From Escherichia phage vb_EcoM-VR5: a stretch of DNA of 64,000 nucleotides. Below the pieces are notes generated by a model. That model was given only the letters and a program-made list of their open reading frames with translations, searched no databases and was not told where the DNA came from. A program made the translations under genes and the position numbers. The DNA is taken from the sequence record NC_028881.1, one strand, 5' to 3'. This document shows, in pieces, positions 7,320 through 55,142 of this stretch. Position 1 is the stretch's first letter. Each line of letters begins with the position of its first letter.

Positions 7320-7586
7320 CTATACAATCTTGACTCGACGGTTGATAATATCGCGGAAGTCAATACGATTTTCTTGGATTTTCAACCAGTTACCAGATTT
7401 GTCTTTGGTGTGGGTAGAATATTCACCATTCCACCAGAAGTCAGTAGCATAAGTCATGGTTTCGTATTTCTTAACTAACGCATTAACTGCATTACCGTTA
7501 GGATTGCGGCCAAATTTTTCTACCAAGGCTTTGATGTCTTTATCAAGAGCTGAAAGTGTAGTACGAATAAAGTTTAACTTGTTCAT
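7320..7586 (-). CDS. Hypothetical small protein, antisense to the late capsid cluster
   Basis: About 88 aa taken from the internal ATG at 7584-7586; preceded on the minus strand by GAGGAG and an early-type promoter (GTTTAC/TACTAT). Confidence 0.5.
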   Translation of the reverse strand: MNKLNFIRTTLSALDKDIKALVEKFGRNPNGNAVNALVKKYETMTYATDFWWNGEYSTHTKDKSGNWLKIQENRIDFRDIINRRVKIV

Positions 7587-7615
7587 TTTTAATCTCCTCA
7601 TGTTTTGATAGGTTT

Positions 7616-7645
7616 ATAGTAACACGTGAGAACCTTGCTGTAAAC
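7616..7645 (-). promoter_or_regulatory. Early sigma70-like promoter for the antisense gene 7320..7586
   Basis: Minus strand GTTTAC, 18 nt, TACTAT, then leader with GAGGAG and ATG. Confidence 0.5.
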
Positions 7646-11283: not shown

Positions 11284-11362
11284 AAATCACCATAATAAAT
11301 ATAATTAAATAGAAGAGCTAGTAATCTTCTGTCACCAAGCCAAATGGTTTAACGGAAGGACC

Positions 11363-11400
11363 TAGACCCATTATAACACACCTAAATTTAAAGCATATTA
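11363..11400 (-). promoter_or_regulatory. Candidate MotA-dependent middle promoter for rnlB
   Basis: Minus strand TGCTTTA (MotA-box-like), about 13 nt, TATAAT (with preceding TGT), then GGGTCTAGGTCC. Confidence 0.4.
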
Positions 11401-11622
11401 CTTTAGACAAAAAACGCGCTTAGCGCCGACCTTTTTATTAACCAAACGTTTACGATACACTACTTTTTCTCGTGCTTTAAATTTCTCTTTGGCATTTTCA
11501 ACTTCAACCCAGGCCTTACCCATTTCTTTAGCAGTACCGCCTAAGAGCTTGGCTATTTCAATAAACGTCATACCGGATTCATGTAAAAAATGTACTTTAA
11601 CCTTATCCATAATGATTCCCAT
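11398..11622 (-). CDS. Hypothetical small basic protein
   Basis: 74-aa ORF (alternative start at 11610); occupies the T4 24.2/24.3 position. Confidence 0.4.
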   Translation of the reverse strand: MGIIMDKVKVHFLHESGMTFIEIAKLLGGTAKEMGKAWVEVENAKEKFKAREKVVYRKRLVNKKVGAKRVFCLK

Positions 11623-11760
11623 GTTGAGTTAGTGAAGCTATCTTAACATGGGATTTTTAACTTGTAAACAGGAGTTTTATGCCAGATATTCTTGAACGTA
11701 AAGATTTACTTTACATACCGCTAGTACCTTAATAAATATTAAATTAATAACGGGGGATTT

Positions 11761-13062
<1,302 letters not shown>

Positions 13063-25868: not shown

Positions 25869-26159
25869 TTACTTACGGAACGAAATGAAACCTGCTGCAG
25901 TCATTAAGGGTTGCTTTTTAACAAATACAGTAACTGAAATAGGAGCTTCGGATTCAAGCTGACCTGTCACTACACCATTAAAGATGTTTTCGGTTTGCTC
26001 AGGTTGTGAAAAATTTTCAACCGGGCGTAAGTCGAACTGCTTGTCTTCACCGAAAACACGACGTAATTCATTACCTACTGCACTGTCGAACTCTTCAGAA
26101 GCCGGGATAACGTTTTCAACTACCAGTTCTTGACCATTAAAGCGGAATGATGATTTCAT
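25869..26159 (-). CDS. Hypothetical early protein
   Basis: 96 aa; preceded on the minus strand by an early promoter and GAGGAG leader. Confidence 0.5.
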   Translation of the reverse strand: MKSSFRFNGQELVVENVIPASEEFDSAVGNELRRVFGEDKQFDLRPVENFSQPEQTENIFNGVVTGQLESEAPISVTVFVKKQPLMTAAGFISFRK

Positions 26160-26187
26160 AATGTTCTCCTCATGTTTGTGTAAGGTA

Positions 26188-26217
26188 ATAGTACCACATC
26201 CTTGTGGTGTTGTAAAC
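26188..26217 (-). promoter_or_regulatory. Early sigma70-like promoter for gene 25869..26159
   Basis: Minus strand GTTTAC, 18 nt, TACTAT; leader ...CATGAGGAGAACATT then ATG. Confidence 0.5.
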
Positions 26218-26219
26218 TG

Positions 26220-28268
26220 TTATCTGAATTTTTCCGGAAGGGCATTGATATCAGTCAATGCACACAGGATTTTATCAACTTCGTTATCTGAAGCTTCTTT
26301 AGATTCTGTAAGGAACCCAGAGAAAGATAATGTTTTGTTTACTGGTTCCAACTTACCGGATTCCAAGAACAAATCACCGTCGTAAACTACTTCGCTTTCG
26401 GCGACGATACGGTCCAGGTCCATTACTTCACACTCTAACAAGAAACGGTTAAAGGATTTAGACAGGCTAGCCGTAGTGGTCTTGTTAACTCGCAGTGTAG
26501 TACCACGTGGCAACAGAACTTCAGCCTCTTCAGGGTATTCAGACAAACTACCTGGCATAATAACCTTAATCTTCTCAATACCACGAATAACAAATGAGAT
26601 ATCAATCTTAGAATTACCTTCGGTTTTCAGTGCATTAGTTACTGTCTGGTTAGCATCTTGTGAACGCCAATCATCAGAGAATGCATGACCATCAGTATAA
26701 GTAGACGAGAAGTCATCTAATGTGATACCCATACCATTGCCGGACATTTGTCCAGGAACGTTACTAAAAATGTTAGGCTTCAACGAAGTAGAAACATAGT
26801 TACGGAAGTAGAATGTACGGCCTGTAATATTGCGACGAAGAGTATTAGAATCACCACCCTGACCACGATAAACCGTAGTACCCTTAGGCAAAGTTACACC
26901 TTTAGAGAACGCGCTATCAAGTTTCTCAATTTCACCTTCAACAAACTTAATGGAAGTATCCTCATCAGGAGTACCAAGCAAGAACGTGTTAATATCATAG
27001 AACGAGTTCATACAATATTCTGATACAGCCTGTTTTTCTTCCTTGGTAAGGTCTGCTTCTGGTTCAACGTTCTGGGCCACTTCATACGAATTGGTAAAAA
27101 CATCATCAATCATCTGAGTAATAATAGCCATAGGACGTTGAAGAGCCTGGGCCTTAACATCTACATCTACCGAAGAACCTGCAGTAATTTCACGAACAAT
27201 TCTTTGCATGATTTCGTACGAGTTTGTAGTATCAAGATTTTTAAATTCTTCAGCCATCAATCTAACGATGTCAGAAGGGTAATTTCTGGTACGTAGCTTA
27301 CCTTTAGCTTCGGATAATGCATCCATTAAAGAAGATACTTGAGGTGATAAACCGGAACTAGACGAAATATTAATATAAGCCAATTCAGATTGGGTTTTCT
27401 TAGCAAAGGTCTTCATAGAGGCTTCAAATGATTCGAATTCTTTAGATTTCTTACCATCTGATTTATATAAAGGAACTTCGTCATCATACTTAGCAAAGAT
27501 TTTAGCAGTCTCTGCATCGGCCTCAATATTTTCAGGAGTAACTGCGTATTGAGCCGCAATAGTAGCACGAACGTTTAATTTAGTACGAGAGATAACAGCC
27601 TTATCGGTACGCTTTTCTTCAACCTGCGCTACAGAAGCTACAACGGCTTCAACCTTACTTACGGCTTGGCCAGTTTTCTTGGAAACATAAACTTCGCCAA
27701 CTTTAGAATCAACTTTAGTATAAAGGTCAGCATCAATTTCCGGCATGCCTTTGATGTCTTCGATATTCGCACCACGACGTACTAAAAGAACGTAAGTATG
27801 TTTACCGCTGAACTGGAACATATCATTAACAACTTTAAACTTACCACCTGTACGAGCCATGGCCAAACGAGCCAATACACGTTGTACAGTAGGACCCTTA
27901 CCTTTCATTTTCTTAGTAGGGAAACGGAACAGAACTGCATCCATTTTAAGTTTATTTACTTGTTCATATACCGTATCGAAAATAGTATTCAATGCACCAA
28001 GTGGGTCAGAACCAAGTCCACCTTTGAGTTCAGCCGGGGCACCTTTGCTTGACAAACTCATTAGAATAACATGAACATATTTGTCACCTGGCTTAACCAT
28101 TTTAACTGCGTCTCCTTGAGACGCATAAGATACCATACGAGCCACAAGGTTATCATTACCTGGTGCTTGGATAGAGAAAATCTGTGGGATACCGGAACCT
28201 GGTTTAAGATTTGTTACTGGATAGTTTTTAGCTGAATCACTATCAAAAACTTCGTTTAAATTTTCCAT
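26220..28268 (-). CDS. alt: Alt-like ADP-ribosyltransferase, copy A
   Basis: 682 aa, the T4 Alt size; C-terminal region carries an Arg (YRGQ), an STS (YVSTSL) and an E-x-E (EAEVLLP) motif. Confidence 0.85.
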   Translation of the reverse strand: MENLNEVFDSDSAKNYPVTNLKPGSGIPQIFSIQAPGNDNLVARMVSYASQGDAVKMVKPGDKYVHVILMSLSSKGAPAELKGGLGSDPLGALNTIFDTVYEQVNKLKMDAVLFRFPTKKMKGKGPTVQRVLARLAMARTGGKFKVVNDMFQFSGKHTYVLLVRRGANIEDIKGMPEIDADLYTKVDSKVGEVYVSKKTGQAVSKVEAVVASVAQVEEKRTDKAVISRTKLNVRATIAAQYAVTPENIEADAETAKIFAKYDDEVPLYKSDGKKSKEFESFEASMKTFAKKTQSELAYINISSSSGLSPQVSSLMDALSEAKGKLRTRNYPSDIVRLMAEEFKNLDTTNSYEIMQRIVREITAGSSVDVDVKAQALQRPMAIITQMIDDVFTNSYEVAQNVEPEADLTKEEKQAVSEYCMNSFYDINTFLLGTPDEDTSIKFVEGEIEKLDSAFSKGVTLPKGTTVYRGQGGDSNTLRRNITGRTFYFRNYVSTSLKPNIFSNVPGQMSGNGMGITLDDFSSTYTDGHAFSDDWRSQDANQTVTNALKTEGNSKIDISFVIRGIEKIKVIMPGSLSEYPEEAEVLLPRGTTLRVNKTTTASLSKSFNRFLLECEVMDLDRIVAESEVVYDGDLFLESGKLEPVNKTLSFSGFLTESKEASDNEVDKILCALTDINALPEKFR

Positions 28269-28271
28269 TAT

Positions 28272-30326
28272 TTACCCTTGGATGAATTTTTCTGGCATAT
28301 CATTAAGATTCATACATGATGCTAAAAGAGGTAGTACATCAAACTTAGTTGATTTTACAAATGAGTCAAAAGATACAGGGTTTTCGGTAGTATCGAAATC
28401 ATCTTGATACACAACCAATTCACCGGTTTCCATTAACATGTTTCCATCATATACTACTGACTCTTGAAGCTCATCTGATGTCATAACTTCGGCTTGAACT
28501 AATTTATTATTAGTTTTAGAAGTACCGTCGTTATAAGAAGCATCTGTTATTTTATTAATTTTGAGCATTAACCCACGTGGAAGAATAATTTCCATTTCGT
28601 TAGAAGGAGCAAGACCTGCACCAGGGAACACCACGTTTATTTTGTGAGCACCTGAAATAGCCCAACCGATACCAACTTGGTCGTCATTAGACTTAACAAG
28701 TCCTTCATCCGATTTGTCTATGGAAACATCTAAACGGACTTCATCAGGCAGAGTACCTACTGAAGCATCTGTCATCCAAGTACCAAAAATATTAGGATAT
28801 AAAGATGTAGATACAAAGTTTCTGAAATAGAATACCTTGTTTTTAACCATTGCTTCGTAAATAGGTGGAATCATTTTCTGGGAACGATACAGTGTAATTC
28901 CTTCTGGTAATCTATCACCATTTTTAAAAGCATCATCTAAGTTATCAATAGCTTTTTCGATTTCCGGGCCAGTCAAAATACTAGAACGAACTTCTGGATT
29001 GTATATACCTAAAAGTGCATTGTTCATATCTTCATAACCGGAACCAACATACTCACGGATACCACGTTTTTGTGCTGGAGTATACTGGGTTTCATCTCGG
29101 TTATCAACAATAGAGAACATTGTCCAACCGGCAGCCAATGCAAATCCACGAATTTCTTTTTTAATGACCTTAGTCTTAGCGACGTTCCAAGAGCTTTCAG
29201 ACAATTCCATGGCTACAGTATAATCTAAATTAGAATGTTTAGCAAAGAATTTTCCTAACCAGGCACCTTTATATTCTTCAAGAACTTCGTTTAGTACTGA
29301 AGCAAAACTGCTTAATGCATCCATAGACGTTATAGGCTTACCGTGGATTTTTTGGAATGCACGAACTTTAACATCATGGTCGACTTCTTTTATTTTGCTT
29401 TTAGTTACTATTCCGCTATCGGCAAAGGCATCACCAACACCATTTATATTTGTAACTGTATTAAGAACACTTTCTAAAGAAAACGATGCGGTAGAAATAG
29501 TAGATAATTCGTTAGATTGTGGAATAAGTGGCGCGGTAGCAGGTTTACTTAATTCGGATGCAGAAGCTTCAAATTTGGTAAACATAGGTGTTTCAAAACG
29601 CGCTGATTCTAAGGATTGCGACATAGCAATAGCACGTCGTGAAATCTTGGTCTTAGTAATAACGGTTTTATCTGTACGGCGTTCTTCAACCTTAGCAATA
29701 CTACCTGCAATAGCGGTTTCTTTAGTAACCTGTACACCTTCTTTTTTGCTTACATAAACATCACCAACATCAGAATCAACTTTAGTATAAAGTTCAGCAT
29801 TAATTTCTGGAATACCTTTGATGTCTTCAATATTAGCTTGTTTACGGACAACTAAAATATAAGTATGCTTGCCAGTGAATTCATACATGGCAGGAACTAC
29901 TTTAAAACGGCCACCAGTTTTCTGTGCAACTAAACGTTGAATAAGGCGCTGTACGATAGGACCTTGTCCTTTCATTTTCTTAGTAGGAAAACGGAACATA
30001 ACCGCGTCCATACGAAGTTTTTTAACTTGCTCGTATACTACATCAAAAATGGTATTAATAGCATCAATAGGAGTTGCTCCTAAGCCACCTTTTAATTCGG
30101 CAGGGGCGCCTTTGGCTGACAGACTCATTAAAATAACGTGAGCATATTTGTCGCCTAATTTAACTTGTTTGATAGCATCACCTTCAGATGAATATGACAC
30201 CATACGTGCTACCAATTGAGACTCAACGCCGCCAATCTTCCAAATCTGTGGTACTTTAAGTTTCGGGTTCAAGTTTACAGTAGGTAATGTACCTTCAGAC
30301 TCGAACACTTCATTTAATTGGGTCAT
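28272..30326 (-). CDS. Alt-like ADP-ribosyltransferase, copy B (tandem paralog)
   Basis: 684 aa; N-terminal half near-identical in pattern to copy A; C-terminus has LYRSQ, FVSTSL and EMEIILP motifs. Confidence 0.85.
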   Translation of the reverse strand: MTQLNEVFESEGTLPTVNLNPKLKVPQIWKIGGVESQLVARMVSYSSEGDAIKQVKLGDKYAHVILMSLSAKGAPAELKGGLGATPIDAINTIFDVVYEQVKKLRMDAVMFRFPTKKMKGQGPIVQRLIQRLVAQKTGGRFKVVPAMYEFTGKHTYILVVRKQANIEDIKGIPEINAELYTKVDSDVGDVYVSKKEGVQVTKETAIAGSIAKVEERRTDKTVITKTKISRRAIAMSQSLESARFETPMFTKFEASASELSKPATAPLIPQSNELSTISTASFSLESVLNTVTNINGVGDAFADSGIVTKSKIKEVDHDVKVRAFQKIHGKPITSMDALSSFASVLNEVLEEYKGAWLGKFFAKHSNLDYTVAMELSESSWNVAKTKVIKKEIRGFALAAGWTMFSIVDNRDETQYTPAQKRGIREYVGSGYEDMNNALLGIYNPEVRSSILTGPEIEKAIDNLDDAFKNGDRLPEGITLYRSQKMIPPIYEAMVKNKVFYFRNFVSTSLYPNIFGTWMTDASVGTLPDEVRLDVSIDKSDEGLVKSNDDQVGIGWAISGAHKINVVFPGAGLAPSNEMEIILPRGLMLKINKITDASYNDGTSKTNNKLVQAEVMTSDELQESVVYDGNMLMETGELVVYQDDFDTTENPVSFDSFVKSTKFDVLPLLASCMNLNDMPEKFIQG

Positions 30327-33673: not shown

Positions 33674-33868
33674 TTATCCTCGCTTTAAATATTTGATTAC
33701 AGACAATTCTTGTCCCATGCGTACGTCTTCAGTTCCGTCAACCCACAGGACTGCATAGGCTTCTTTAATTACTTTACCGTTAATTTTAAAAGCAGGTAAA
33801 ACCTTTGAAATCATTCCAGGAATACCTATGCCTTTTAACTGGACTGTTTGTGATAAAAATAATTTCAT
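33674..33868 (-). CDS. Hypothetical small protein
   Basis: 64-aa ORF in the same series. Confidence 0.4.
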   Translation of the reverse strand: MKLFLSQTVQLKGIGIPGMISKVLPAFKINGKVIKEAYAVLWVDGTEDVRMGQELSVIKYLKRG

Positions 33869-33875
33869 GTTAGCC

Positions 33876-34178
33876 TCAATATTTCATTTGGAAGCAACGT
33901 GGCTCGTCACATTCAATAAAGAACTTACAGTCTGCAGCAGAAATAATGATTCGCTCATCTTGACGGGCATCTGTTTTGATAGATTTCATATCATAAGACA
34001 CGTTATCATCTGGTATATAGATTTTATACACGTCGCCATTATGGGCGAAATCAACACGGAACAGCTCTAGACCTATTAAATCAGTCACAAGACTGTTTAT
34101 AGCGTAGAACTCATCAAGCTGACTAGTAGGCAAACAATACCATTTACCTTCAGTAAACTCTAACATAATTAACCTCAA
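33876..34178 (-). CDS. Hypothetical protein, paralog 1 of a tandem pair
   Basis: 100 aa ending ...FQMKY; its upstream leader (cctcaatatttcatttggaagc) is repeated before the next gene. Confidence 0.5.
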   Translation of the reverse strand: MRLIMLEFTEGKWYCLPTSQLDEFYAINSLVTDLIGLELFRVDFAHNGDVYKIYIPDDNVSYDMKSIKTDARQDERIIISAADCKFFIECDEPRCFQMKY

Positions 34179-34462
34179 TATTTCATTTGGAAGCCGTATG
34201 GCTTAACGTCACCGCCATCCATATTTGATGTATTAATTTCGCTGGCATCAACCATGGAAATATCAACATCATTGCGCAGTTTAACGATTGCTAGAGTATC
34301 GCGACCATTTACAGTGCGGAATTCTAGTGGACAAACTACATCAACATAGTTCTTAATGGAATCGCGTGTTGGTTCACACCCAGCAGGAACATTAGGGCCT
34401 TTTTTAGAGAAAACAACTTCACAGAAATTTTTACGAGTATCGAAATAAGTGGTCATAAACAT
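34175..34462 (-). CDS. Hypothetical protein, paralog 2 of a tandem pair
   Basis: 95 aa ending ...GFQMKY; shares the leader repeat. Confidence 0.5.
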   Translation of the reverse strand: MFMTTYFDTRKNFCEVVFSKKGPNVPAGCEPTRDSIKNYVDVVCPLEFRTVNGRDTLAIVKLRNDVDISMVDASEINTSNMDGGDVKPYGFQMKY

Positions 34463-34476
34463 AATATTTTCCTCAA

Positions 34477-34492
34477 GGAGGCCGAAGCCTCC
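34477..34492 (-). terminator. Hairpin GGAGGC-CGAA-GCCTCC
   Basis: GC stem with tetraloop between genes 34501..34866 and 34175..34462. Confidence 0.45.
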
Positions 34493-34500
34493 ATTTAAGA

Positions 34501-34866
34501 TTAGATATCAAACTCGTTAAGAACTACATCAAAGATTGCTTCAAGATGTTCAGGTTTAGCTCGGTTACTCAGAATATGTCGAATCCAAGTTTTAACTAAG
34601 AGTTTACGATTATCACCGTTCCAACAAGGATGAGTGCCTAAATCGCGTTCACGGAAATCATCATCTAGAGCGATTTTAAAGTTGGAACCTTCCTTAGTGA
34701 TTGAAAGAGTGATACCGTTTTCAAATCGCATATAAACGTAGTTAGGAGTCATGCACTGCTCGATTTCACATACTGAACCGTTTTCATGTTTCCACAGGCA
34801 AATAACTTCAGAAGAACCAGCGATACCATTAGAAACATATTTACGTTCGAAGTTGATGTAGTTCAT
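34501..34866 (-). CDS. Hypothetical protein
   Basis: 121-aa ORF with an early-type promoter upstream and a hairpin downstream. Confidence 0.5.
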   Translation of the reverse strand: MNYINFERKYVSNGIAGSSEVICLWKHENGSVCEIEQCMTPNYVYMRFENGITLSITKEGSNFKIALDDDFRERDLGTHPCWNGDNRKLLVKTWIRHILSNRAKPEHLEAIFDVVLNEFDI

Positions 34867-34942
34867 TTTATTATCCTTTGGTTTGTTTTCGTATTATTTG
34901 GTACAGGTCTATAATAACACAACCTGTACCAAAGTAAAACAT

Positions 34943-35275
34943 TTATTTCACAACATTCCAATTTTTCATATCAAGTTTACCAACTTTTTTCATCTGAGTA
35001 ATCAGACGTTCGGCACGCTCACGAGCAGTAACATAATAGAATTCACCGATTTTGTTTTCTTCAATACGACCTGTAATTACAGTTTTCAGTTCGTAAATCC
35101 AACCTGTAAAGAAGTTGTGAAGCTCAATAGTAAAGGTGAAATCAGTACCCATACCTTCAGTGGTTTCAACTTCAATAATATCACCTTCAACTGCTGTCAG
35201 GACCCACATGGTTTCTTGATATTCACCGTTGAAACATTTAGCTTTAACAGATGCATTCAGGTTTACAGTTTTCAT
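34943..35275 (-). CDS. Hypothetical protein
   Basis: 110-aa ORF with an early-type promoter upstream. Confidence 0.5.
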   Translation of the reverse strand: MKTVNLNASVKAKCFNGEYQETMWVLTAVEGDIIEVETTEGMGTDFTFTIELHNFFTGWIYELKTVITGRIEENKIGEFYYVTARERAERLITQMKKVGKLDMKNWNVVK

Positions 35276-35374
35276 TTTATTCTCCAGTTTGTTTTCGTAT
35301 TATTTGGTACATGTCTATAGTATCATGCCTACCGGAGATGTACACCCTTTTTTTAAAGATTTAGAAACAAAAAT

Positions 35375-38380: not shown

Positions 38381-38934
38381 CAGATAGTCTCCAACTTAAG
38401 TTGTCTTGTAGTGGTAGCTTGGGTAACGTCGCCTTTGACGATATAACACACTTGTTGGAACGAATTAATCAAAAGCTCCTCGGCTTGTCGATCAGCTTGT
38501 TCCTTTGTGTTATGGCGAGAATGAACTGTAATCTTACCATTTTTAACTACAAGCACTTTCCAGTCGGCAGTAGTTTTTACAGGTTTAGGCTCATCATTTT
38601 CAGGAATACTCACTGATGCCAATGGACGTACCACTTCAATAAAGCATTCAAATTCATGGCCAAAAAAGCCTGCTGAATTAAAAAGAATACTATTTGAATC
38701 ATCAGGATTACCGGTGATTTTACTCAGGTCAACAAACATCATCTCATCATGTACACGAATTCGGCTTACACTTTCGCGACCATTATGATAATCAATTTCA
38801 ACTTCAAATGGATTCATACCTACATACTTGGCAAAAGCAGTGTTAAGCCTGTAAGCACCGTTATTAGTGAATTTATTTTTATAATGCTCGCTTATAAATT
38901 TGTAAAACTTACGTTCTTCAAAGAACTTACCCAT
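38380..38934 (-). CDS. Hypothetical protein
   Basis: 184-aa ORF with an early-type promoter (38963-38992) upstream. Confidence 0.5.
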   Translation of the reverse strand: MGKFFEERKFYKFISEHYKNKFTNNGAYRLNTAFAKYVGMNPFEVEIDYHNGRESVSRIRVHDEMMFVDLSKITGNPDDSNSILFNSAGFFGHEFECFIEVVRPLASVSIPENDEPKPVKTTADWKVLVVKNGKITVHSRHNTKEQADRQAEELLINSFQQVCYIVKGDVTQATTTRQLKLETI

Positions 38935-38962
38935 TTCGATTTCCTCATGTGTTGGTAGGACT

Positions 38963-38992
38963 ACTATACCACAGTCCTACCATGGTGTAAAC
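38963..38992 (-). promoter_or_regulatory. Early sigma70-like promoter for gene 38380..38934
   Basis: Minus strand GTTTAC, 18 nt, TATAGT. Confidence 0.45.
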
Positions 38993-38994
38993 AC

Positions 38995-39273
38995 TTAAAT
39001 TGCTTCGACAACTACCGTTTGTTTCTGGAAGTCCATTTTGCATGAAATAGCCAAAATATGGTCATCAATTTTAAATGGAACAATTGCAAATGCTGCACCT
39101 GGTGTGAGTTGAACAGTGATTGCATCAACTGCATCCGGGAACATGATTTCCAGAATAGCAGACAAACGACCATGCACTTTTAGTTCAGTCGACACGTCTA
39201 GGCTTTCGTATAGATAATCAGATACAATCTGACTAAAAACTACTTTAACAATTTCAGAATATGTAGGAAACAT
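38995..39273 (-). CDS. Hypothetical protein
   Basis: 92-aa ORF; MotA-box-like promoter element upstream (39311-39345). Confidence 0.5.
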   Translation of the reverse strand: MFPTYSEIVKVVFSQIVSDYLYESLDVSTELKVHGRLSAILEIMFPDAVDAITVQLTPGAAFAIVPFKIDDHILAISCKMDFQKQTVVVEAI

Positions 39274-39310
39274 TTCTTTTCTCGCTCAGTTATTGGGGTT
39301 ATTCAAAGGA

Positions 39311-39345
39311 CCTAGACCCATTATAACATAAAAGTTTTAAAGCAT
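39311..39345 (-). promoter_or_regulatory. Candidate MotA-dependent middle promoter for gene 38995..39273
   Basis: Same TGCTTTA ... TGTTATAAT GGGTCTAGGTCC arrangement as upstream of rnlB. Confidence 0.4.
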
Positions 39346-39560
39346 TAATGAACGGTATGCACCTTGACATTAACGATAAATCGGTCGATGACTTCAGTCA
39401 GCGGAACGAATTCAACATAGTACTCGCCTTTATAACGTTCGTTCAAATCGTTACGCAGTGCAGCCAGGTTATTGATAAGAGCAGGAGACATATTCTGCCC
39501 TACCAGTTTCTGAAGCTCTTTATAAGCTTCTTCTTCAACTTCATGATGTTTATTATACAT
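39345..39560 (-). CDS. Hypothetical small protein
   Basis: Start taken at the internal ATG 39558-39560 to avoid a long overlap with the upstream gene; the track ORF extends to 39635. Confidence 0.35.
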   Translation of the reverse strand: MYNKHHEVEEEAYKELQKLVGQNMSPALINNLAALRNDLNERYKGEYYVEFVPLTEVIDRFIVNVKVHTVH

Positions 39561-40954: not shown

Positions 40955-41433
40955 ACACCAAGCTCCTTATAAAGTTCTTCGCGACAGGTTTTAAGGATTT
41001 TACCAGTTTCATAAGCTGTGCTTTCAGAAACATCACCAAGTGCAGCGGCAGCTTGCATTTGGCCGTGGCGTTTAGCTGCGTATTCAAAACTTTTTACTAG
41101 CTCACGAATACGTTCTTTTTCATTGTACTCTTCAATGAATTCAGGGTATTCCCAAACCGGGCGCATCATACGATACCACTGTTGGATGGTAATATAATTA
41201 CTTCCATTCAAATTAATAATCTGTGAAGGCTCAATAGACCCTGGAGCATAAAAAGTTACCTGTCTTACTACATCAATACCGTCTACAATAGCCCAAGCAA
41301 AATCGAAAGTTGCCTTCTTTTCAATCGGCGTGCTTGCACAGGACCCTAGTTTAAGGAGCTTTTGTAATACAGGAGATTTAATACTTGAAATGTATTCAGG
41401 CTTAGCCACAAAACTGTTATCACGTAATGTCAT
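40951..41433 (-). CDS. Hypothetical protein (pseT.1 position)
   Basis: About 160 aa from the ATG at 41431-41433, preceded by GAGGAA. Confidence 0.5.
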
Positions 41434-41600
41434 AATAATTTCCTCAATTTTTATAATCCGTAGGAGCATTATACTCTGCTCCCAAGAGTTTGTAAACTAC
41501 TTTCCAAAAAGACCGTGCATACACATGCTGAACACAATTCCGAAACAAAAGAATGCGGCGCCAAATCTAACAGCATCCCAACCACAAACACATGTCTCGA

Positions 41601-41891: not shown

Positions 41892-42241
41892 TCTGTGATG
41901 CTCCTGAAGTCTTTGGCAAAGGAATCGAAGGAGTTGTTGATTTGTTTTTCGACCAATCCTGGCTTACTTGCCACCACGTGCGCCTTCTTCGAATCTTTAC
42001 GGAGCTTTTCATTTTCTACCTTAATTTTATCCATTCGGGCGTTCATTTCAGTAGTACGGAATTCAATATCAGCGTATTGGCCATGAAGGTCTTCTAAAGC
42101 TTCAGCGTTCTGTTTAGCTGTTTGCTGGGTTGTTTTCAGTTCTTCAGTTAGGGTATCAATACGGCTTGATTGATACGAAATAAGACCGTAAGCACCTACT
42201 ACAATGGCTCCGGCTAAAAGGTAAATACTTAATTTAGACAT
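41888..42241 (-). CDS. Inner-membrane spanin (i-spanin)
   Basis: 117 aa; one N-terminal transmembrane segment (IYLLAGAIVVGAYGLI) then a charged coiled-coil-like region; T4 PseT.3 position. Confidence 0.7.
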   Translation of the reverse strand: MSKLSIYLLAGAIVVGAYGLISYQSSRIDTLTEELKTTQQTAKQNAEALEDLHGQYADIEFRTTEMNARMDKIKVENEKLRKDSKKAHVVASKPGLVEKQINNSFDSFAKDFRSITE

Positions 42242-42729
42242 TTTGTAATAATCTCGATGATGTCATCACGTGACAGGGAATTAATAAGAACCGTTTTAGG
42301 ATTTTCACACTGAATTTTGTATGTTTCAAACATCACACACAATTCTTCAGAGGTATGGTAAGGACTTGAAATACCGAGGCGATTAGTTTTATCACCCAGT
42401 GGGTCGCAAATCAAATAGAAAGTGATGCCATCGATTTTAACATTAGGTTGACTGATATTAATGAACACGTTGGCATCATATTTGGAAAGGTTGTTCTGAA
42501 GGAATTCGACCATAGCATTAACAGCTTCCGGCATGGCTTCACGTTTCTCTTCAGTATAACGAGTAGAATATTCTTTTTGTTTAATTTTCTTTTTAGCATT
42601 ACGAGCCATCGTAACACGAAGGTCGGTGAGGTAACCAACTGCACGAGAACCTTTAAAAACTTGGATACCGTCAGTTGAGTCACCATAAGCCTTAACAATC
42701 ATTTCGTTAGTGATAAGTTGCATGTTCAT
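42229..42729 (-). CDS. alc: Alc-like protein (by synteny only)
   Basis: About 166 aa from the ATG at 42727-42729 (GAGGAG leader); lies between rnlA and the spanins as alc does in T4. Confidence 0.45.
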   Translation of the reverse strand: MNMQLITNEMIVKAYGDSTDGIQVFKGSRAVGYLTDLRVTMARNAKKKIKQKEYSTRYTEEKREAMPEAVNAMVEFLQNNLSKYDANVFINISQPNVKIDGITFYLICDPLGDKTNRLGISSPYHTSEELCVMFETYKIQCENPKTVLINSLSRDDIIEIITKCLN

Positions 42730-42757
42730 AATGTTCTCCTCATGTTTGTGTAAGGTC

Positions 42758-42786
42758 ATACTATCACATCATGAGGAGATGTAAAC
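42758..42786 (-). promoter_or_regulatory. Early sigma70-like promoter for the alc-like gene
   Basis: Minus strand GTTTAC, 17 nt, TAGTAT; leader identical to that of gene 25869..26159. Confidence 0.5.
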
Positions 42787-43934
42787 TACTCTACCACAAT
42801 TTCTTTCAAATATTTTTCAGGGATTTGAGCCTTATGATTTTTCAAGAACACAGAGTTAATCTGGTCCATGACTGTATCATAATTAATACCGCCTACGTAC
42901 GCCTGCATAAGAATAGAGAACAAACCTGGGAAGTCTTTGAGGATTAACTGTCCGGTAACAGCATAGTCCTTACGGTCGCGTCCCTTGAGTTGAGAATAAG
43001 CCGCTTCTAACAAGGCTAAAGATTGTTCTAAGTAGTCTAAATGGATACGTTCAAACGCATTGATTTTCTCGATGGCAAATGAATCCGTACTGAACAACCC
43101 TCGGAGGTCATCAGTTCCACCAGCCACTACAACTTCAAACAAACGTTCGTTATTGTTAATGGAATCCTTAGTATGATGCAGTGCACTATACCAAGCAGTT
43201 TTGAGTTTAAAGAACGTGCCATCTTTAAGCACAAAGATAAAGCCTTCAATACCCTCTTGTTTACGGATATCGCCAACAAAATCGCCTTCAGAGAGTTTGT
43301 AGCTTTTAACCAAATGCTTACGCAGAGCACCATCTTTAAACAGTTCAGCGTAAGGGATATACTCGCCTGTTTCGTTATTACGGACGTTCAGTAAGATAAG
43401 GTTTGTTTCTTGGTAAGCCAGCACAATACGGTTAGTAGGAGCGACGTACTCAAGGTTGCATGTATATCCTGCTTTAGTAATTTCTTCTAAACGGGCCGCG
43501 AAGGCTTCGTTTTCAGGGAGACGAAGGAAACGTAAAGAATCATACACCATCGACGAATGGATGGAGCCTTTAGATTTAACAGAAAGATACTGCCGGTCCA
43601 TGAAGGTAGAAATCAAGGAACCATCTTCCTTAGCCATAACCAAGTCAATATTTTCTGGCGATAAATCCAGACCAATGGTCATAGGGTTTTCATCGAGATT
43701 AAAGAACTTTTGCATAGGACGAGCCGCAATACGTACAGGACCTTGTTCGTCCATTTCAAACATGATGCCTCTGCATTCCAGGGCATCGTCCTCCAACCAA
43801 TCAGAGTATGAGGCATAGTTATAACTAAAGATGCGATAATTGACTCCTAGCGCACTCTGGAAGTCTTTAAAGAAGAACTTAGATTTAGTTGAGTTTTTAA
43901 CCAAAGTCATCAAGTTATTATATAATTCAATCAT
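42786..43934 (-). CDS. rnlA: RNA ligase 1 (RnlA)
   Basis: 382 aa; N-terminus ...YRIFSYNYASYSDWL..DALECRGIMFEMD...PVRIA.RPM.KFFNL.ENP matches T4 Rnl1 from memory. Confidence 0.9.
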   Translation of the reverse strand: MIELYNNLMTLVKNSTKSKFFFKDFQSALGVNYRIFSYNYASYSDWLEDDALECRGIMFEMDEQGPVRIAARPMQKFFNLDENPMTIGLDLSPENIDLVMAKEDGSLISTFMDRQYLSVKSKGSIHSSMVYDSLRFLRLPENEAFAARLEEITKAGYTCNLEYVAPTNRIVLAYQETNLILLNVRNNETGEYIPYAELFKDGALRKHLVKSYKLSEGDFVGDIRKQEGIEGFIFVLKDGTFFKLKTAWYSALHHTKDSINNNERLFEVVVAGGTDDLRGLFSTDSFAIEKINAFERIHLDYLEQSLALLEAAYSQLKGRDRKDYAVTGQLILKDFPGLFSILMQAYVGGINYDTVMDQINSVFLKNHKAQIPEKYLKEIVVE

Positions 43935-49955: not shown

Positions 49956-50196
49956 TTTTATTTGCCTTAACGATTTTCCAATCAGCTTTGAACTGGTCGA
50001 CATCCGAGTGATAAATCCAGAATCCGGATGATATACCGTCTTCGTAAAGAGGGCAACCGTCACATTCATCTTTCCAACCCATATCACACAAAGCTTGTTC
50101 AGCTTTTTCTAGAGCTTCCGGGTTGTTACCTTGGATTGTGAAGTACCATTTGCCTTTAACTTCAGAATCGTTGATTGATTCACGTTGTAATTTCAT
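49948..50196 (-). CDS. Hypothetical protein
   Basis: 82-aa ORF with an early-type promoter upstream (50223-50252). Confidence 0.5.
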   Translation of the reverse strand: MKLQRESINDSEVKGKWYFTIQGNNPEALEKAEQALCDMGWKDECDGCPLYEDGISSGFWIYHSDVDQFKADWKIVKANKNA

Positions 50197-50222
50197 TTTA
50201 TTCTCCTCAAGTTGATAAGGCT

Positions 50223-50252
50223 ATAGTATCACTACCATAGCCTGGTGTAAAC
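50223..50252 (-). promoter_or_regulatory. Early sigma70-like promoter for gene 49948..50196
   Basis: Minus strand GTTTAC, 18 nt, TACTAT. Confidence 0.45.
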
Positions 50253-50254
50253 AT

Positions 50255-50482
50255 TTATTTTTGAATTAAGCCCATATAAAATTCAGCATCTTCAGCATGC
50301 ATACCATCACAATACTCGTCAGCCATAAAACGAGTCAGGTCTTCAAGAGGGCCTTGGATTTCAATTTGGATACTAAAGAATTGAGTATCTTTGATGTAAG
50401 CCATACTCAAAGAAGGATAACGATTACGGATAACTTCGTAAGTGTATTCAAAATCAACGATATCAATATTAACATTAGCCAT
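50255..50482 (-). CDS. Hypothetical protein
   Basis: 75-aa ORF with an early-type promoter and GAGGAA leader upstream (50512-50540). Confidence 0.5.
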
Positions 50483-50511
50483 TTTATTTTCCTCATGTAG
50501 TTGATAGGTCT

Positions 50512-50540
50512 ATAGTATCATGTTTAAAGATATTGTAAAC
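50512..50540 (-). promoter_or_regulatory. Early sigma70-like promoter for gene 50255..50482
   Basis: Minus strand GTTTAC, 17 nt, TACTAT, then GAGGAA leader. Confidence 0.45.
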
Positions 50541-50814: not shown

Positions 50815-51169
50815 AGGTAGCTTTAATCAGGGCAATGACTTCAGCCGCATTTTTATGATTTACCTGCACATGAATGGTTTGCGTGTCAACAACAGGAGCA
50901 TCTTCATCAACTTCCAGGAAGTGACGGAATTCACCTTCAGCGAGTTCAAAGTACTCATCAGCATCATCCATACTATCCAGGATGGTGCCATCTTTCATTT
51001 CAACTTTTTCGACAAAATAATCGCCATCAATATAGCACATATCCAGGACTTTGAAGGAACTGCCATGCTGTTCCATCAGCTTGACCATGCGCGAATTATC
51101 ATCTGGACAGTCGGCGATGAAACGTTTTTTAGCAGCAGGGTCTAATACGTAAGTTTTACCAGTTTCCAT
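50804..51169 (-). CDS. Hypothetical acidic protein
   Basis: 121-aa ORF with an early-type promoter and GAGGAA leader upstream (51198-51226). Confidence 0.5.
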   Translation of the reverse strand: METGKTYVLDPAAKKRFIADCPDDNSRMVKLMEQHGSSFKVLDMCYIDGDYFVEKVEMKDGTILDSMDDADEYFELAEGEFRHFLEVDEDAPVVDTQTIHVQVNHKNAAEVIALIKATFGI

Positions 51170-51197
51170 TTTTATTTCCTCATGTTTTGATAGGTCT

Positions 51198-51226
51198 ATA
51201 GTATCATGTTCCTAGAGGGTGTAAAC
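51198..51226 (-). promoter_or_regulatory. Early sigma70-like promoter for gene 50804..51169
   Basis: Minus strand GTTTAC, 17 nt, TACTAT, then GAGGAA leader. Confidence 0.45.
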
Positions 51227-54127: not shown

Positions 54128-55075
54128 TTAATAGAAATCAGCTACTGTAGCGGTTAGTTTAGACAAACCTGATTTAACGAAATAAGGATAAACTTTAGAT
54201 TTCGAAGGTTTGATGTAGTTATTATATCTTTCAGTAATTAAAGCAACAATATCATCTGGGATAAAGTCCATATCAATTAAGATTTGGTTTTCGCAGAAAC
54301 GTTCATATTGTTCTTCAGTAAGAAGTGTTTTAATTATATCATGGTCGTAATAATTCAGAGCAATTGCTTCAAGTTCTTTAGCACGAGTACTTGGAGTACG
54401 TTCGCCTTCAACCATGGTCAACCAATAATCACCGCGAACTTTAATACTTGCGACGTTATCCTTGCGGTCGCCTTTAACAACTTTAGTTACACAATCAAGC
54501 AACGAGTCACCGGATTTAGTTTTGACGAATTTTTTCTGCATTGGTGACCATTGTTTTACCCCAGGGAATTTATGAAGTTGGGTAAAGTCACCGTCAGAAG
54601 AACCAATCATTACAGGGTGACCTAAAGCAGTGAGGATTCGAGTCAAAACAGCAATATGGTCATCAGCCTCGATTGTATCGATATTCATAACAATATAAGG
54701 CATGTTTTGTTCTAGTTCATCCACAATAATATGCATTGCAGTAAATAGACCTTCCCAATCAAATGGCGATTCATCACGTGCCTTAGCACGGTTTTTCTTA
54801 TAATAAGAAGAATAACGACGTCGCCAATACCCTGATTTAGAGTTATCAACGCAAACGATTAATTGGTTGTAACCTTGTTTTTTAAAGTCTTTAATATTTT
54901 TCTTAATTGAGTTCAGCACGAGGTGCCGAAGCATTGCTGTAGTTACTTTAGGAAATCCAGCGTTTTCACCGAATTCTTGGAAGGCCGCAGCCATAATGAT
55001 TTGGCTAAAGTCTAACAATAAAAATCCGTCTTTTTGTCGTTCTTCTTCAGGAAGTAAAAAATCTAAATCGTTCAT
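54128..55075 (-). CDS. rnh: RNase H (5'-3' exonuclease / flap endonuclease)
   Basis: Start at the internal ATG 55073-55075 with an AGAGG site; matches T4 RNase H from memory (KSGYWRR..YYKKNR.KAR.ES.DWEG...YIVM.ID..EADDHIAVL...ISSDGDFTQLHK.P.VKQWSPM.KK). Confidence 0.9.
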   Translation of the reverse strand: MNDLDFLLPEEERQKDGFLLLDFSQIIMAAAFQEFGENAGFPKVTTAMLRHLVLNSIKKNIKDFKKQGYNQLIVCVDNSKSGYWRRRYSSYYKKNRAKARDESPFDWEGLFTAMHIIVDELEQNMPYIVMNIDTIEADDHIAVLTRILTALGHPVMIGSSDGDFTQLHKFPGVKQWSPMQKKFVKTKSGDSLLDCVTKVVKGDRKDNVASIKVRGDYWLTMVEGERTPSTRAKELEAIALNYYDHDIIKTLLTEEQYERFCENQILIDMDFIPDDIVALITERYNNYIKPSKSKVYPYFVKSGLSKLTATVADFY

Positions 55076-55142
55076 ATGAACCTCTGTCCAATTAGTGTAG
55101 GAGTTCATTATATCATGGCCCTAGAAGAAGTAAACACTTTGC

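Follow-up and report, generated by a model that had tools for sequence, protein, structure and literature searches.

Identity of 32 nt between two distant early promoter cassettes of a JS98-group phage: a probable recombination scar in the alc leader

The DNA analyzed here (hereafter the window) is a 64,000-nt stretch of Escherichia phage vb_EcoM-VR5 (NC_028881.1), in which two distant minus-strand genes, alt.-3 and alc, carry the same short sequence directly in front of and across their start codons. This raises the question of whether the identity reflects a common design of early leaders or an exchange between two loci. A k-mer and repeat comparison of the window with itself revealed that positions 26155-26186 and 42725-42756 are exactly identical, as had been claimed in the original prediction, and that they form a 32-nt block (TTCATAATGTTCTCCTCATGTTTGTGTAAGGT) present as a direct repeat with copies 16,570 nt apart. 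The block ranks second by length among the exact repeats of the window, the longest one lying inside a collagen-like repeat gene, while the number of 32-mer repeats expected by chance in 64 kb is negligible. A repeat finder reported similarity of 43 out of 46 nt around the two copies (family D10). On the minus strand, the block spans from one base past the -10 hexamer, through the SD, to the ATG of alt.-3 (site A) and of alc (site B). The two sites and their neighbors are composed of the following elements:

25869-26159, minus strand: alt.-3 ORF, 96 aa, PHROG 1739 (function unknown)
26155-26186, minus strand: copy 1 of the 32-nt block, consisting of the leader ACCTTACACAAACATGAGGAGAACATT, ATG and AA; SD GAGGAG at 26166-26171, ATG at 26157-26159
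26188-26193, minus strand: site A -10 hexamer TACTAT
26194-26211, minus strand: site A spacer AACACCACAAGGATGTGG, 18 nt, ending in TGG, an extended -10 (TGn)
26212-26217, minus strand: site A -35 hexamer GTTTAC; the alt stop codon TAA (26220-26222) is 2 nt upstream
26220-28268, minus strand: upstream alt paralog, 682 aa, Alt-like ADP-ribosyltransferase
42229-42729, minus strand: alc ORF, 166 aa, PHROG 1253 'inhibitor of host transcription' (E=3e-70)
42725-42756, minus strand: copy 2 of the 32-nt block, the phage-specific, probably replaced alc leader; SD arm CATGAGGAGA at 42735-42744, ATG at 42727-42729
42758-42763, minus strand: site B -10 hexamer TAGTAT, preceded by TGA as an extended -10
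42770-42779, minus strand: anti-SD arm TCTCCTCATG within the 17-nt spacer (42764-42780); ancestral, unchanged in JS98 and ESCO10
42781-42786, minus strand: site B -35 hexamer GTTTAC, its first G overlapping the rnlA stop codon TAG (42786-42788)
42786-43934, minus strand: rnlA (RNA ligase 1), the gene upstream of alc; its read-through RNA would carry the anti-SD arm

Read along the minus strand, site A consists of GTTTAC (26217-26212), 18 nt, TACTAT, a single T and ACCTTACACAAACATGAGGAGAACATT-ATG, and site B of GTTTAC (42786-42781), 17 nt, TAGTAT, a single G and the same 27-nt leader followed by ATG, so that the leader and start codon are indeed the same at both genes. The further claim of a same promoter geometry holds only approximately, since the core promoters differ: the spacers are of 18 and 17 nt and unrelated to each other, and the -10 reads TACTAT at site A and TAGTAT at site B. 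The cassettes occupy the whole of the intergenic gaps, which are 60 nt long at site A (26160-26219) and 56 nt at site B (42730-42785).

A T4-type pattern of this kind stands directly upstream of both alt.-3 and alc, in agreement with their earlier designation as early promoter-leader units, and it is not confined to them. The strict pattern GTTTAC-N13-15-TGnTAnnnT yielded nine matches in the window versus 0.16 expected by shuffling. All nine are on the minus strand and are followed by the SD and ATG of an ORF, and the five additional minus-strand sites proposed earlier to have the same architecture all proved to be real. Three looser copies bring the number of cassettes in the window to 12. 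The T4-specific pattern was needed for this purpose, as a scan of the window with a generic sigma-70 consensus gave 51 sites versus 49.9 expected and had no discriminating power. No Rfam family and no tRNA were detected anywhere in the window. Apart from sites A and B, the cassettes are:

7586-7645, minus strand: early promoter-leader cassette before an 88-aa ORF
11610-11669, minus strand: cassette before a 70-aa ORF; the spacer contains TCCCATGT, complementary to the SD-spanning ACATGGGA
34866-34939, minus strand: early promoter-like cassette with a TTTTAC -35, before a 121-aa ORF; a 13-bp stem flanks the -10
35275-35345, minus strand: early promoter-like cassette P35345 with a GTGTAC -35, before the 30.8 homologue; spacer segment TCTCCGGT pairs with ACTGGAGA (SD)
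38934-38992, minus strand: cassette P38992 before a 184-aa ORF; stem GGTAGGACT/AGTCCTACC around the -10
41433-41497, minus strand: cassette P41497 before a 160-aa ORF; JS10 homology break at 41440, at the SD/ATG
50196-50252, minus strand: cassette before an 82-aa ORF; a stem-loop overlaps the -10
50482-50540, minus strand: cassette before a 75-aa ORF
51169-51226, minus strand: cassette before a 121-aa ORF; an exact 24-nt block is common with the cassette at 50540
55075-55135, minus strand: cassette before a 315-aa exonuclease-family ORF

Sites A and B would accordingly be read as two of about 12 compact early-gene cassettes of 57-75 nt, each filling the gap between minus-strand genes and each predicted to consist of a -35 GTTTAC(A), a 17-18-nt spacer ending in TGn, a -10 TAnnnT, a short unstructured leader, the SD and the ATG. 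Judged by consensus, the cassettes match the T4 early promoter class, and they are thus predicted to be used by the host sigma-70 RNA polymerase right after infection. T4 early promoters have been described as UP/-35/TGn/-10 'uber' promoters (Hinton 2010 review, PMC2988021), and the resemblance extends to the GTTTAC, the 17-18-nt distance, the TGn and TAnnnT motifs and the position directly before early genes such as alc. Unlike in T4 early promoters, the region of the UP element is here the coding sequence of the upstream gene, and the promoters are predicted from sequence. The DNA upstream of the -35 is the 3' end of alt or rnlA and contains A-rich runs (GGAAAAATTCAGATAACA; GAAAAATATTTGAAAGAAATT). 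A search for usable literature on JS98 early promoters or T4 alc start sites returned none. The leader also contains a short upstream ORF (ATG AGG AGA ACA TTA TGA, 'MRRTL'), which was dropped from consideration, its frame and length not being conserved in other cassettes and no SD of its own being present.

The cassettes are of a known kind, in that they match the PeSL (promoter-early stem-loop) elements of Arbiol, Comeau and Krisch, which were described in RB49/phi1 (Arbiol et al. 2010, PMC2839356) and in PST/T4 and nt-1/KVP40 (Comeau et al. 2014, PMC4122927), PeSL-like sequences having already been noted in JS98 (PMC2839356, PMC4122927). Like PeSLs, they are short intergenic units that combine an early promoter of the sigma-70 type with an SD and a start codon and have ORFs of the same strand on either side; the sites fit the PST/T4 consensus TTTACW-N17-TAYWAT; and there are 9-12 copies, located next to variable ORFs and indel boundaries. 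PeSL stem-loops lie between the -35 and -10 or overlap the -10 (PMC2839356, PMC4122927). Folding of the 12 cassettes of the window gave z < -2 in five cases, site B among them. Site A has no significant stem-loop, which sets it apart from PeSLs: its spacer contains a small internal hairpin (CCACA-AGGA-TGTGG, 5-6 bp), shows no complementarity to the SD, and the read-through fold has z=-0.28. By the stem-loop criterion, site A is therefore a weak PeSL. An AT-rich spacer and an upstream terminator, as found in PeSLs, are likewise missing, since the upstream stop codon abuts the -35.

The origin of the 32-nt identity became apparent from comparison with related phages. The source phage belongs to the JS98 group (Dhakavirus) of T4-type phages, with ESCO10 as the nearest database entry (94-98% identity). 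In about 37 Dhakavirus (JS98-group) records, the 67 nt of the site A cassette (26152-26218) are conserved at 100%. When the site B cassette was used as a query, no match of 95% or more was found among 50,697 phage records, and the best match in every relative was its alt.-3 promoter and not its own alc promoter. The alc -35 and spacer (GTTTACATCTCCTCATGATGTG) are identical in the window, JS98, ESCO10 and four further relatives, and the leader that follows them reads TTAGTATAGACTTACCAACTAATGAGGAGAAAACAAAATG in JS98, ESCO10 and four other relatives and ATAGTATGACCTTACACAAACATGAGGAGAACATTATG in the window. The alc leaders of these six relatives thus differ from that of the window in about 16 columns, including a 2-nt length change. 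In an alignment of 1,201 nt with ESCO10, 16 of the 55 differing columns fall within 35 nt (42730-42764), with zero differences in the 29 nt upstream and the 74 nt downstream of this segment (binomial P=5e-15; the largest cluster in 20,000 permutations comprised 10). The exact pattern from -10 to ATG was present in IMG/VR in five Dhakavirus genomes only, once in each and at the alt.-3 site, and the exact chimeric alc junction was not found in JGI metagenome contigs. Because site A is conserved, all sampled relatives differ at alc and the junction in the window is unmatched, it is the alc leader that appears to have been replaced. The identity of the 32 nt does not go back to a common ancestral design but to a lineage-specific replacement of one leader, and in our judgment it is probably a recombination scar in PeSL-type cassettes, by which the alc leader of this lineage was exchanged for an alt.-3-type leader. 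The alc cassette of the window would then be a chimera, in which an alc-type -35 and spacer are joined to an alt.-3-type leader.

Could the same leader have arisen without recombination, through independent convergence on an optimum for early leaders and SDs or through purifying selection for it? Consensus elements, namely TGnTAnnnT and (C)ATGAGGA, are indeed common to all early cassettes, and site A is invariant across relatives although the neighboring coding DNA is only 92-97% identical. However, sites A and B share no more than about 60-65% identity over 46 nt with the ten remaining cassettes of this genome, and about 16 differences packed in 35 nt between perfectly conserved flanks are not a point-mutation pattern, which makes this explanation highly improbable. 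Hardly more credible is the reverse polarity, with the alc leader of the window as the ancestral state and that of JS98 and ESCO10 as the derived one. Nothing speaks directly for it, the direction being set by parsimony alone, and against it, the other leader is present in ESCO10, the closest relative at 94-98% identity, as well as in the JS98/JS10/IME group further away, while no other record with the window type was found among 50,697 phage records and the JGI metagenomes. From this distribution among near and more distant relatives, we infer by parsimony that the alc leader of the window is the derived one.

As for the way in which the probable replacement took place, a segment of about 28-35 nt, beginning right behind the alc -10 and extending to the ATG, would have been swapped for an alt.-3-type leader, with the alc -35, spacer and coding sequence kept in place. 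The patch would be bounded by the shared GATGTGnTAnTAT on one side and by ATGAGGAGAA/ATGAA on the other. Most likely, it was donated by site A of the same genome, through short-homology ectopic recombination or gene conversion. Since the ancestral alc and alt.-3 leaders already belong to one family, with about 11 of 20 positions in common upstream of the SD, no more than about 12 positions are diagnostic. Furthermore, the site B -10 is flanked by A at 42764 and G at 42757, two bases found neither at site A nor in the ancestral alc leader. As these two bases differ from site A, a foreign donor or additional point mutations are possible. In the former case, the alc leader patch would have come from a co-infecting phage with a cassette of the same family, through inter-genomic PeSL-type recombination. 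The flanks of the site B -10 (GATAGTATG) do match those of the Karamvirus CC31 p108 cassette (GATACTATG) and not those of site A (GGTACTATT), and the leader family is widespread at other genes, with 822 matching records, the T4-type 30.8 among them. But no foreign donor with the exact sequence was seen in the phage records searched or in IMG/VR; the exact 32-nt block occurs only at Dhakavirus alt.-3 sites, that of the phage's own genome included, and CC31 and RB14 differ inside the block (CAAGAGG, CATC, AAAGGAG). We therefore regard a foreign origin of the patch as unlikely, if clearly less so than convergence or the reverse polarity.

The replacement of the alc leader by an alt.-3-type leader fits into a broader pattern, since the cassettes also coincide with places where the window and its relatives part. 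The original prediction had suggested that gene content at these junctions be compared among related phages, and variability was indeed found at the site A -35, at the alc leader and at 35313. Between alt.-3 and the GTTTAC of site A, the window is 92-100% identical to ESCO10 and JS98, and directly upstream of this hexamer the identity drops to 30-55%. The breakpoint lies at 26218-26231, and homology to relatives is lost in the 3' part of the alt paralog (26232-27578), the loss ending at the site A promoter. The adjacent C-terminal 446 aa of Alt have at most 35% identity to anything in the phage collection. By local BLAST against ESCO10 and JS10, a second breakpoint was placed at 35313, just after the -10 of P35345; JS10 is devoid of 837 nt carrying the T4 gene 30.8 homologue and a neighboring 121-aa ORF. 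Another breakpoint, at 41440, falls on the SD/ATG of P41497, and one at 39273-39349 on a middle promoter of the MotA type. In other genera, leaders of the site A/B family precede other genes (p108 of CC31 and T4-type 30.8 in RB14), and P38992 is nearly the same as the alc promoter of contigs the size of a T4-like genome, including its stem. With the variable 3' region of alt ending exactly at the -35 of site A, the cassettes are, as far as these alignments indicate, module boundaries, and the breakpoint and leader-family data fit the PeSL model of portable promoter cassettes. An apparent break of JS98 homology at window position 42789 was rejected as a BLAST artefact, in which the alc cassette of the window had been joined to JS98 alt.-3, while JS98 is in fact collinear at rnlA-alc. 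Such a junction of the alc cassette with the alt.-3 locus of relatives exemplifies how annotation and comparative pipelines can mislead.

The idea that the two copies might serve as substrates for recombination or gene shuffling can thus be kept in so far as the cassettes are junctions with respect to relatives. In this genome, however, recombination between sites A and B would not be a viable shuffle, because it would delete 16.5 kb with genes 30 and 31, and the repeat pair is better seen as the trace of a past exchange than as a useful shuffling substrate. As a general notion, cassette shuffling had already been published for PeSLs (PMC2839356, PMC4122927). Mini-circle crossovers of PeSLs were mapped between the -10 and the SD/ATG by Arbiol et al. 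(PMC2839356), and chimeric cassettes with crossovers in this very interval are a further likeness, which here follows from comparison. PeSL events, by contrast, are insertions, deletions or mini-circles between neighboring cassettes, and the present one would instead be a very short internal patch between cassettes 16.5 kb apart. A parallel can also be drawn with the morons of lambdoid phages (Hendrix and colleagues, discussed in PMC2839356), which are likewise self-contained expression units traveling with their own promoter, although morons are thought to be inserted by illegitimate recombination without conserved flanking motifs, whereas here the conserved cassette supplies the homology. 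The probable exchange at alc is a small and fairly ordinary case of the promoter-cassette shuffling known in T4-type phages. It also offers a clean instance, open to dating, in which only part of a cassette, about 30 nt, would have passed from one T4-type early promoter cassette to another. This lends weight to the view, inherent in the PeSL model, that regulatory units are the seams at which T4-like genomes recombine, and would broaden the model to cover the JS98 group as well as patch-type conversion of copies lying far apart.

If the two genes carry the same leader, are they also regulated in the same way? The earlier suggestion of co-regulation does not follow in its strict form, for the spacer of alc is complementary to the SD and that of alt.-3 is not. 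The segment TCTCCTCATG of the alc spacer (42770-42779), located next to the -35, is the reverse complement of the SD region CATGAGGAGA (42735-42744). In RNA reading through site B, the predicted fold has a free energy of -26.4 kcal/mol (z=-2.96) and the SD (42736-42741) is enclosed in a 10-bp stem, while RNA starting downstream of the -10 is unstructured (-2.3 kcal/mol). [quoted passage not shown] The swapped-in leader retained the pairing with the spacer and extended it from 9 to 10 bp. Read-through RNA from rnlA would consequently fold and hide the alc SD, and RNA from alc's own promoter would lack the 5' arm and be translatable. Because site A carries the same leader with no anti-SD, alt.-3 and alc would not be regulated identically. 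Significant complementarity between spacer and leader was found in five of the 12 cassettes of the window, including site B.

We then asked how far this complementarity is retained at alc in 12 non-redundant loci from several T4-like phage groups, using a test that compared matched with mismatched spacer-leader combinations. Watson-Crick runs of 9-15 nt between spacer and leader were present in 10 of the 12 loci (shuffle p <= 0.001), the mismatched, cross-locus pairings averaging only 4-6.5 nt. In about eight of the 12, the SD, placed 3-7 nt ahead of the ATG, is part of the 3' arm. The arms comprise at least six different pairs across T4-like groups, e.g., TCTCCTCAG/CTGAGGAGA, ATCCTCATTTTGTTG/CAACAAAATGAGGAT and CCTCTCGTTTTTG/CAAAAACGAGAGG, further ones being ATCTCCGTTT/AAACGGAGAT and ATCCTCATCAG/CTGATGAGGAT. 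MAFFT alignment followed by RNAalifold predicted no pairs in the 12 alc cassettes, because the arms shift register between genera, and the covariation hence rests on the matched-versus-mismatched test. A protein-binding palindrome was rejected as a cause of the inverted repeats, given that the arms covary and no single sequence is kept. The sampled 30.8 promoters fell into only two sequence classes, too few for a covariation test.

On balance, these observations lead us to favor the interpretation that translation of alc is confined to transcripts initiated at the gene's own early promoter, the SD of read-through RNA being masked. A possible but less likely alternative is that the alc stem-loop is a terminator or attenuator of upstream transcription, i.e., the published function of PeSLs, and not a translational mask. 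The stem-loop of an RB49 PeSL reduced lacZ about as strongly as the T1 rrnB terminator (PMC2839356), and the stem-loops of the cassettes at 38992, 34939 and 50252 exclude the SD, both of which are in line with termination. The alc stem, however, does not resemble an intrinsic terminator, since no U-run follows it (…GAGGAGAACAUUAUGAAC), and its 3' arm is the SD itself in about eight of the 12 alc loci, a feature necessary for masking but not for termination. One and the same stem could serve both functions. In having the 3' arm of its stem coincide with the SD, alc also departs from what the PeSL papers describe, the words 'translation' and 'ribosome' being absent from the 2010 one (PMC2839356).

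Masking of this sort has a precedent in T4, in which e, soc, 49 and I-TevI have hairpins that sequester the RBS and contain an internal promoter (Uzan and Miller 2010, PMC3014915). As in those genes, the long upstream transcripts of alc are predicted to pair with the SD, and RNA from the gene's own promoter is without the 5' arm. The promoter in the T4 cases is a late one (TATAAATA), so that translation is delayed until late in infection, whereas at alc an early sigma-70-type promoter is present with the 5' arm in its -35/-10 spacer, which would be the same principle in another temporal class. The SD-masking design is described only for late promoters in the reviews and PeSL papers covered (PMC3014915, PMC2839356, PMC4122927), and the early-promoter anti-SD design may be a new form of a known translational control. 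It is about an even question whether, more generally, the -35/-10 spacer doubles as an anti-SD in many early cassettes of Tevenvirinae and makes them self-insulating units. This dual use would be clearest at alc in most of the T4-like groups sampled and would be found also at the 30.8 homologue, at p108 of CC31 and at the ORF at 11610, a breadth for and against which the case seems to us equally balanced. If true, only RNA from the own early promoter would be translated, with early, middle and late read-through from upstream remaining silent, and the GGAG of the read-through RNA may be protected against RegB. It would also become understandable that regulation survives when entire cassettes, or matched halves like the leader exchanged at alc, are moved between genes. 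Since the alc promoter is early, Alc synthesis would be limited to an immediate-early burst, and the covarying anti-SD in the alc spacer thus leads to the testable prediction that translation of Alc is restricted to the first minutes of infection.

The early promoter cassette P38992 (38931-38997) was found to be nearly identical to the alc promoters at loci L031 and L037, which lie on contigs in the T4-like genome-size range, and with which it also shares a 9-11 bp stem around the -10 element (GGTAGGACT/AGTCCTACC). Since the gene downstream of P38992 in the window is a 184-aa ORF and not alc, the same cassette serves non-orthologous genes across phage groups. Sequence sharing was also detected between the tandem early cassettes P34939 and P35345, which have an exact 25-nt leader block in common (34881-34905 and 35287-35311). 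Comparison with the more distant relative JS10 revealed that 837 nt (window 34475-35313), containing the T4 gene 30.8 homologue as well as the adjoining 121-aa ORF, are missing from that phage, and one breakpoint of this deletion lies directly 3' of the P35345 -10 element.

Of the twelve early cassettes of the window, three have a spacer between the -35 and -10 elements that is complementary to the Shine-Dalgarno (SD) sequence of the gene downstream:

11610-11669, minus strand, spacer TCCCATGT and SD segment ACATGGGA
35275-35345, minus strand, spacer TCTCCGGT and SD segment ACTGGAGA
42729-42786, minus strand, alc cassette, spacer TCTCCTCATG and SD segment CATGAGGAGA

Two further cassettes, P34939 and P38992, have a spacer that pairs with the segment directly 3' of the -10 element, not with the SD.

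An exact 23-nt block, TGTTATAATGGGTCTAGGTCCTT, is common to two MotA-type middle promoters on the minus strand (11356-11378 and 39306-39328), both laid out as (a/t)aTGCTTTA, 12 nt and TATAAT. The promoter with the second copy of the block comprises the following elements:

39338-39346, minus strand, MotA box
39320-39325, minus strand, -10 element TATAAT

Around this promoter (39273-39349), the JS10 sequence differs from that of the window. The repeated block may be the middle-promoter counterpart of early-cassette reuse, and we offer the PmSLs of nt-1 as a comparison for it.

A segment of 314 nt at 33868-34183, absent from both JS10 and the closest relative, ESCO10, codes for an ORF of about 95-100 aa. 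A perfect direct repeat of 22 nt (33874-33895 and 34173-34194; GCTTCCAAATGAAATATTGAGG on the minus strand) brackets the segment and encodes a common C-terminus, ...FQMKY*, together with the next SD. The segment is an ORF insertion or a duplication that arose via gene-end homology and not via a promoter cassette.

In the alt paralog adjoining alt.-3 (the 96-aa ORF), the C-terminal 446 aa (26220-27560, minus strand) gave a best identity of at most about 35% among the translated sequences of 50,697 phage records, and the N-terminal part is conserved, matching ESCO10 and JS10 at 88-89% nucleotide identity. A similar divergence affects the middle portion of the second alt paralog (28592-29521). The diverged region appears to represent a new effector-domain allele of the injected ADP-ribosyltransferase.

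The largest repeat families of the window come from a 433-aa ORF (11761-13062, plus strand) that contains two long tracts of collagen-like Gly-X-Y repeats and a non-repetitive C-terminal domain.
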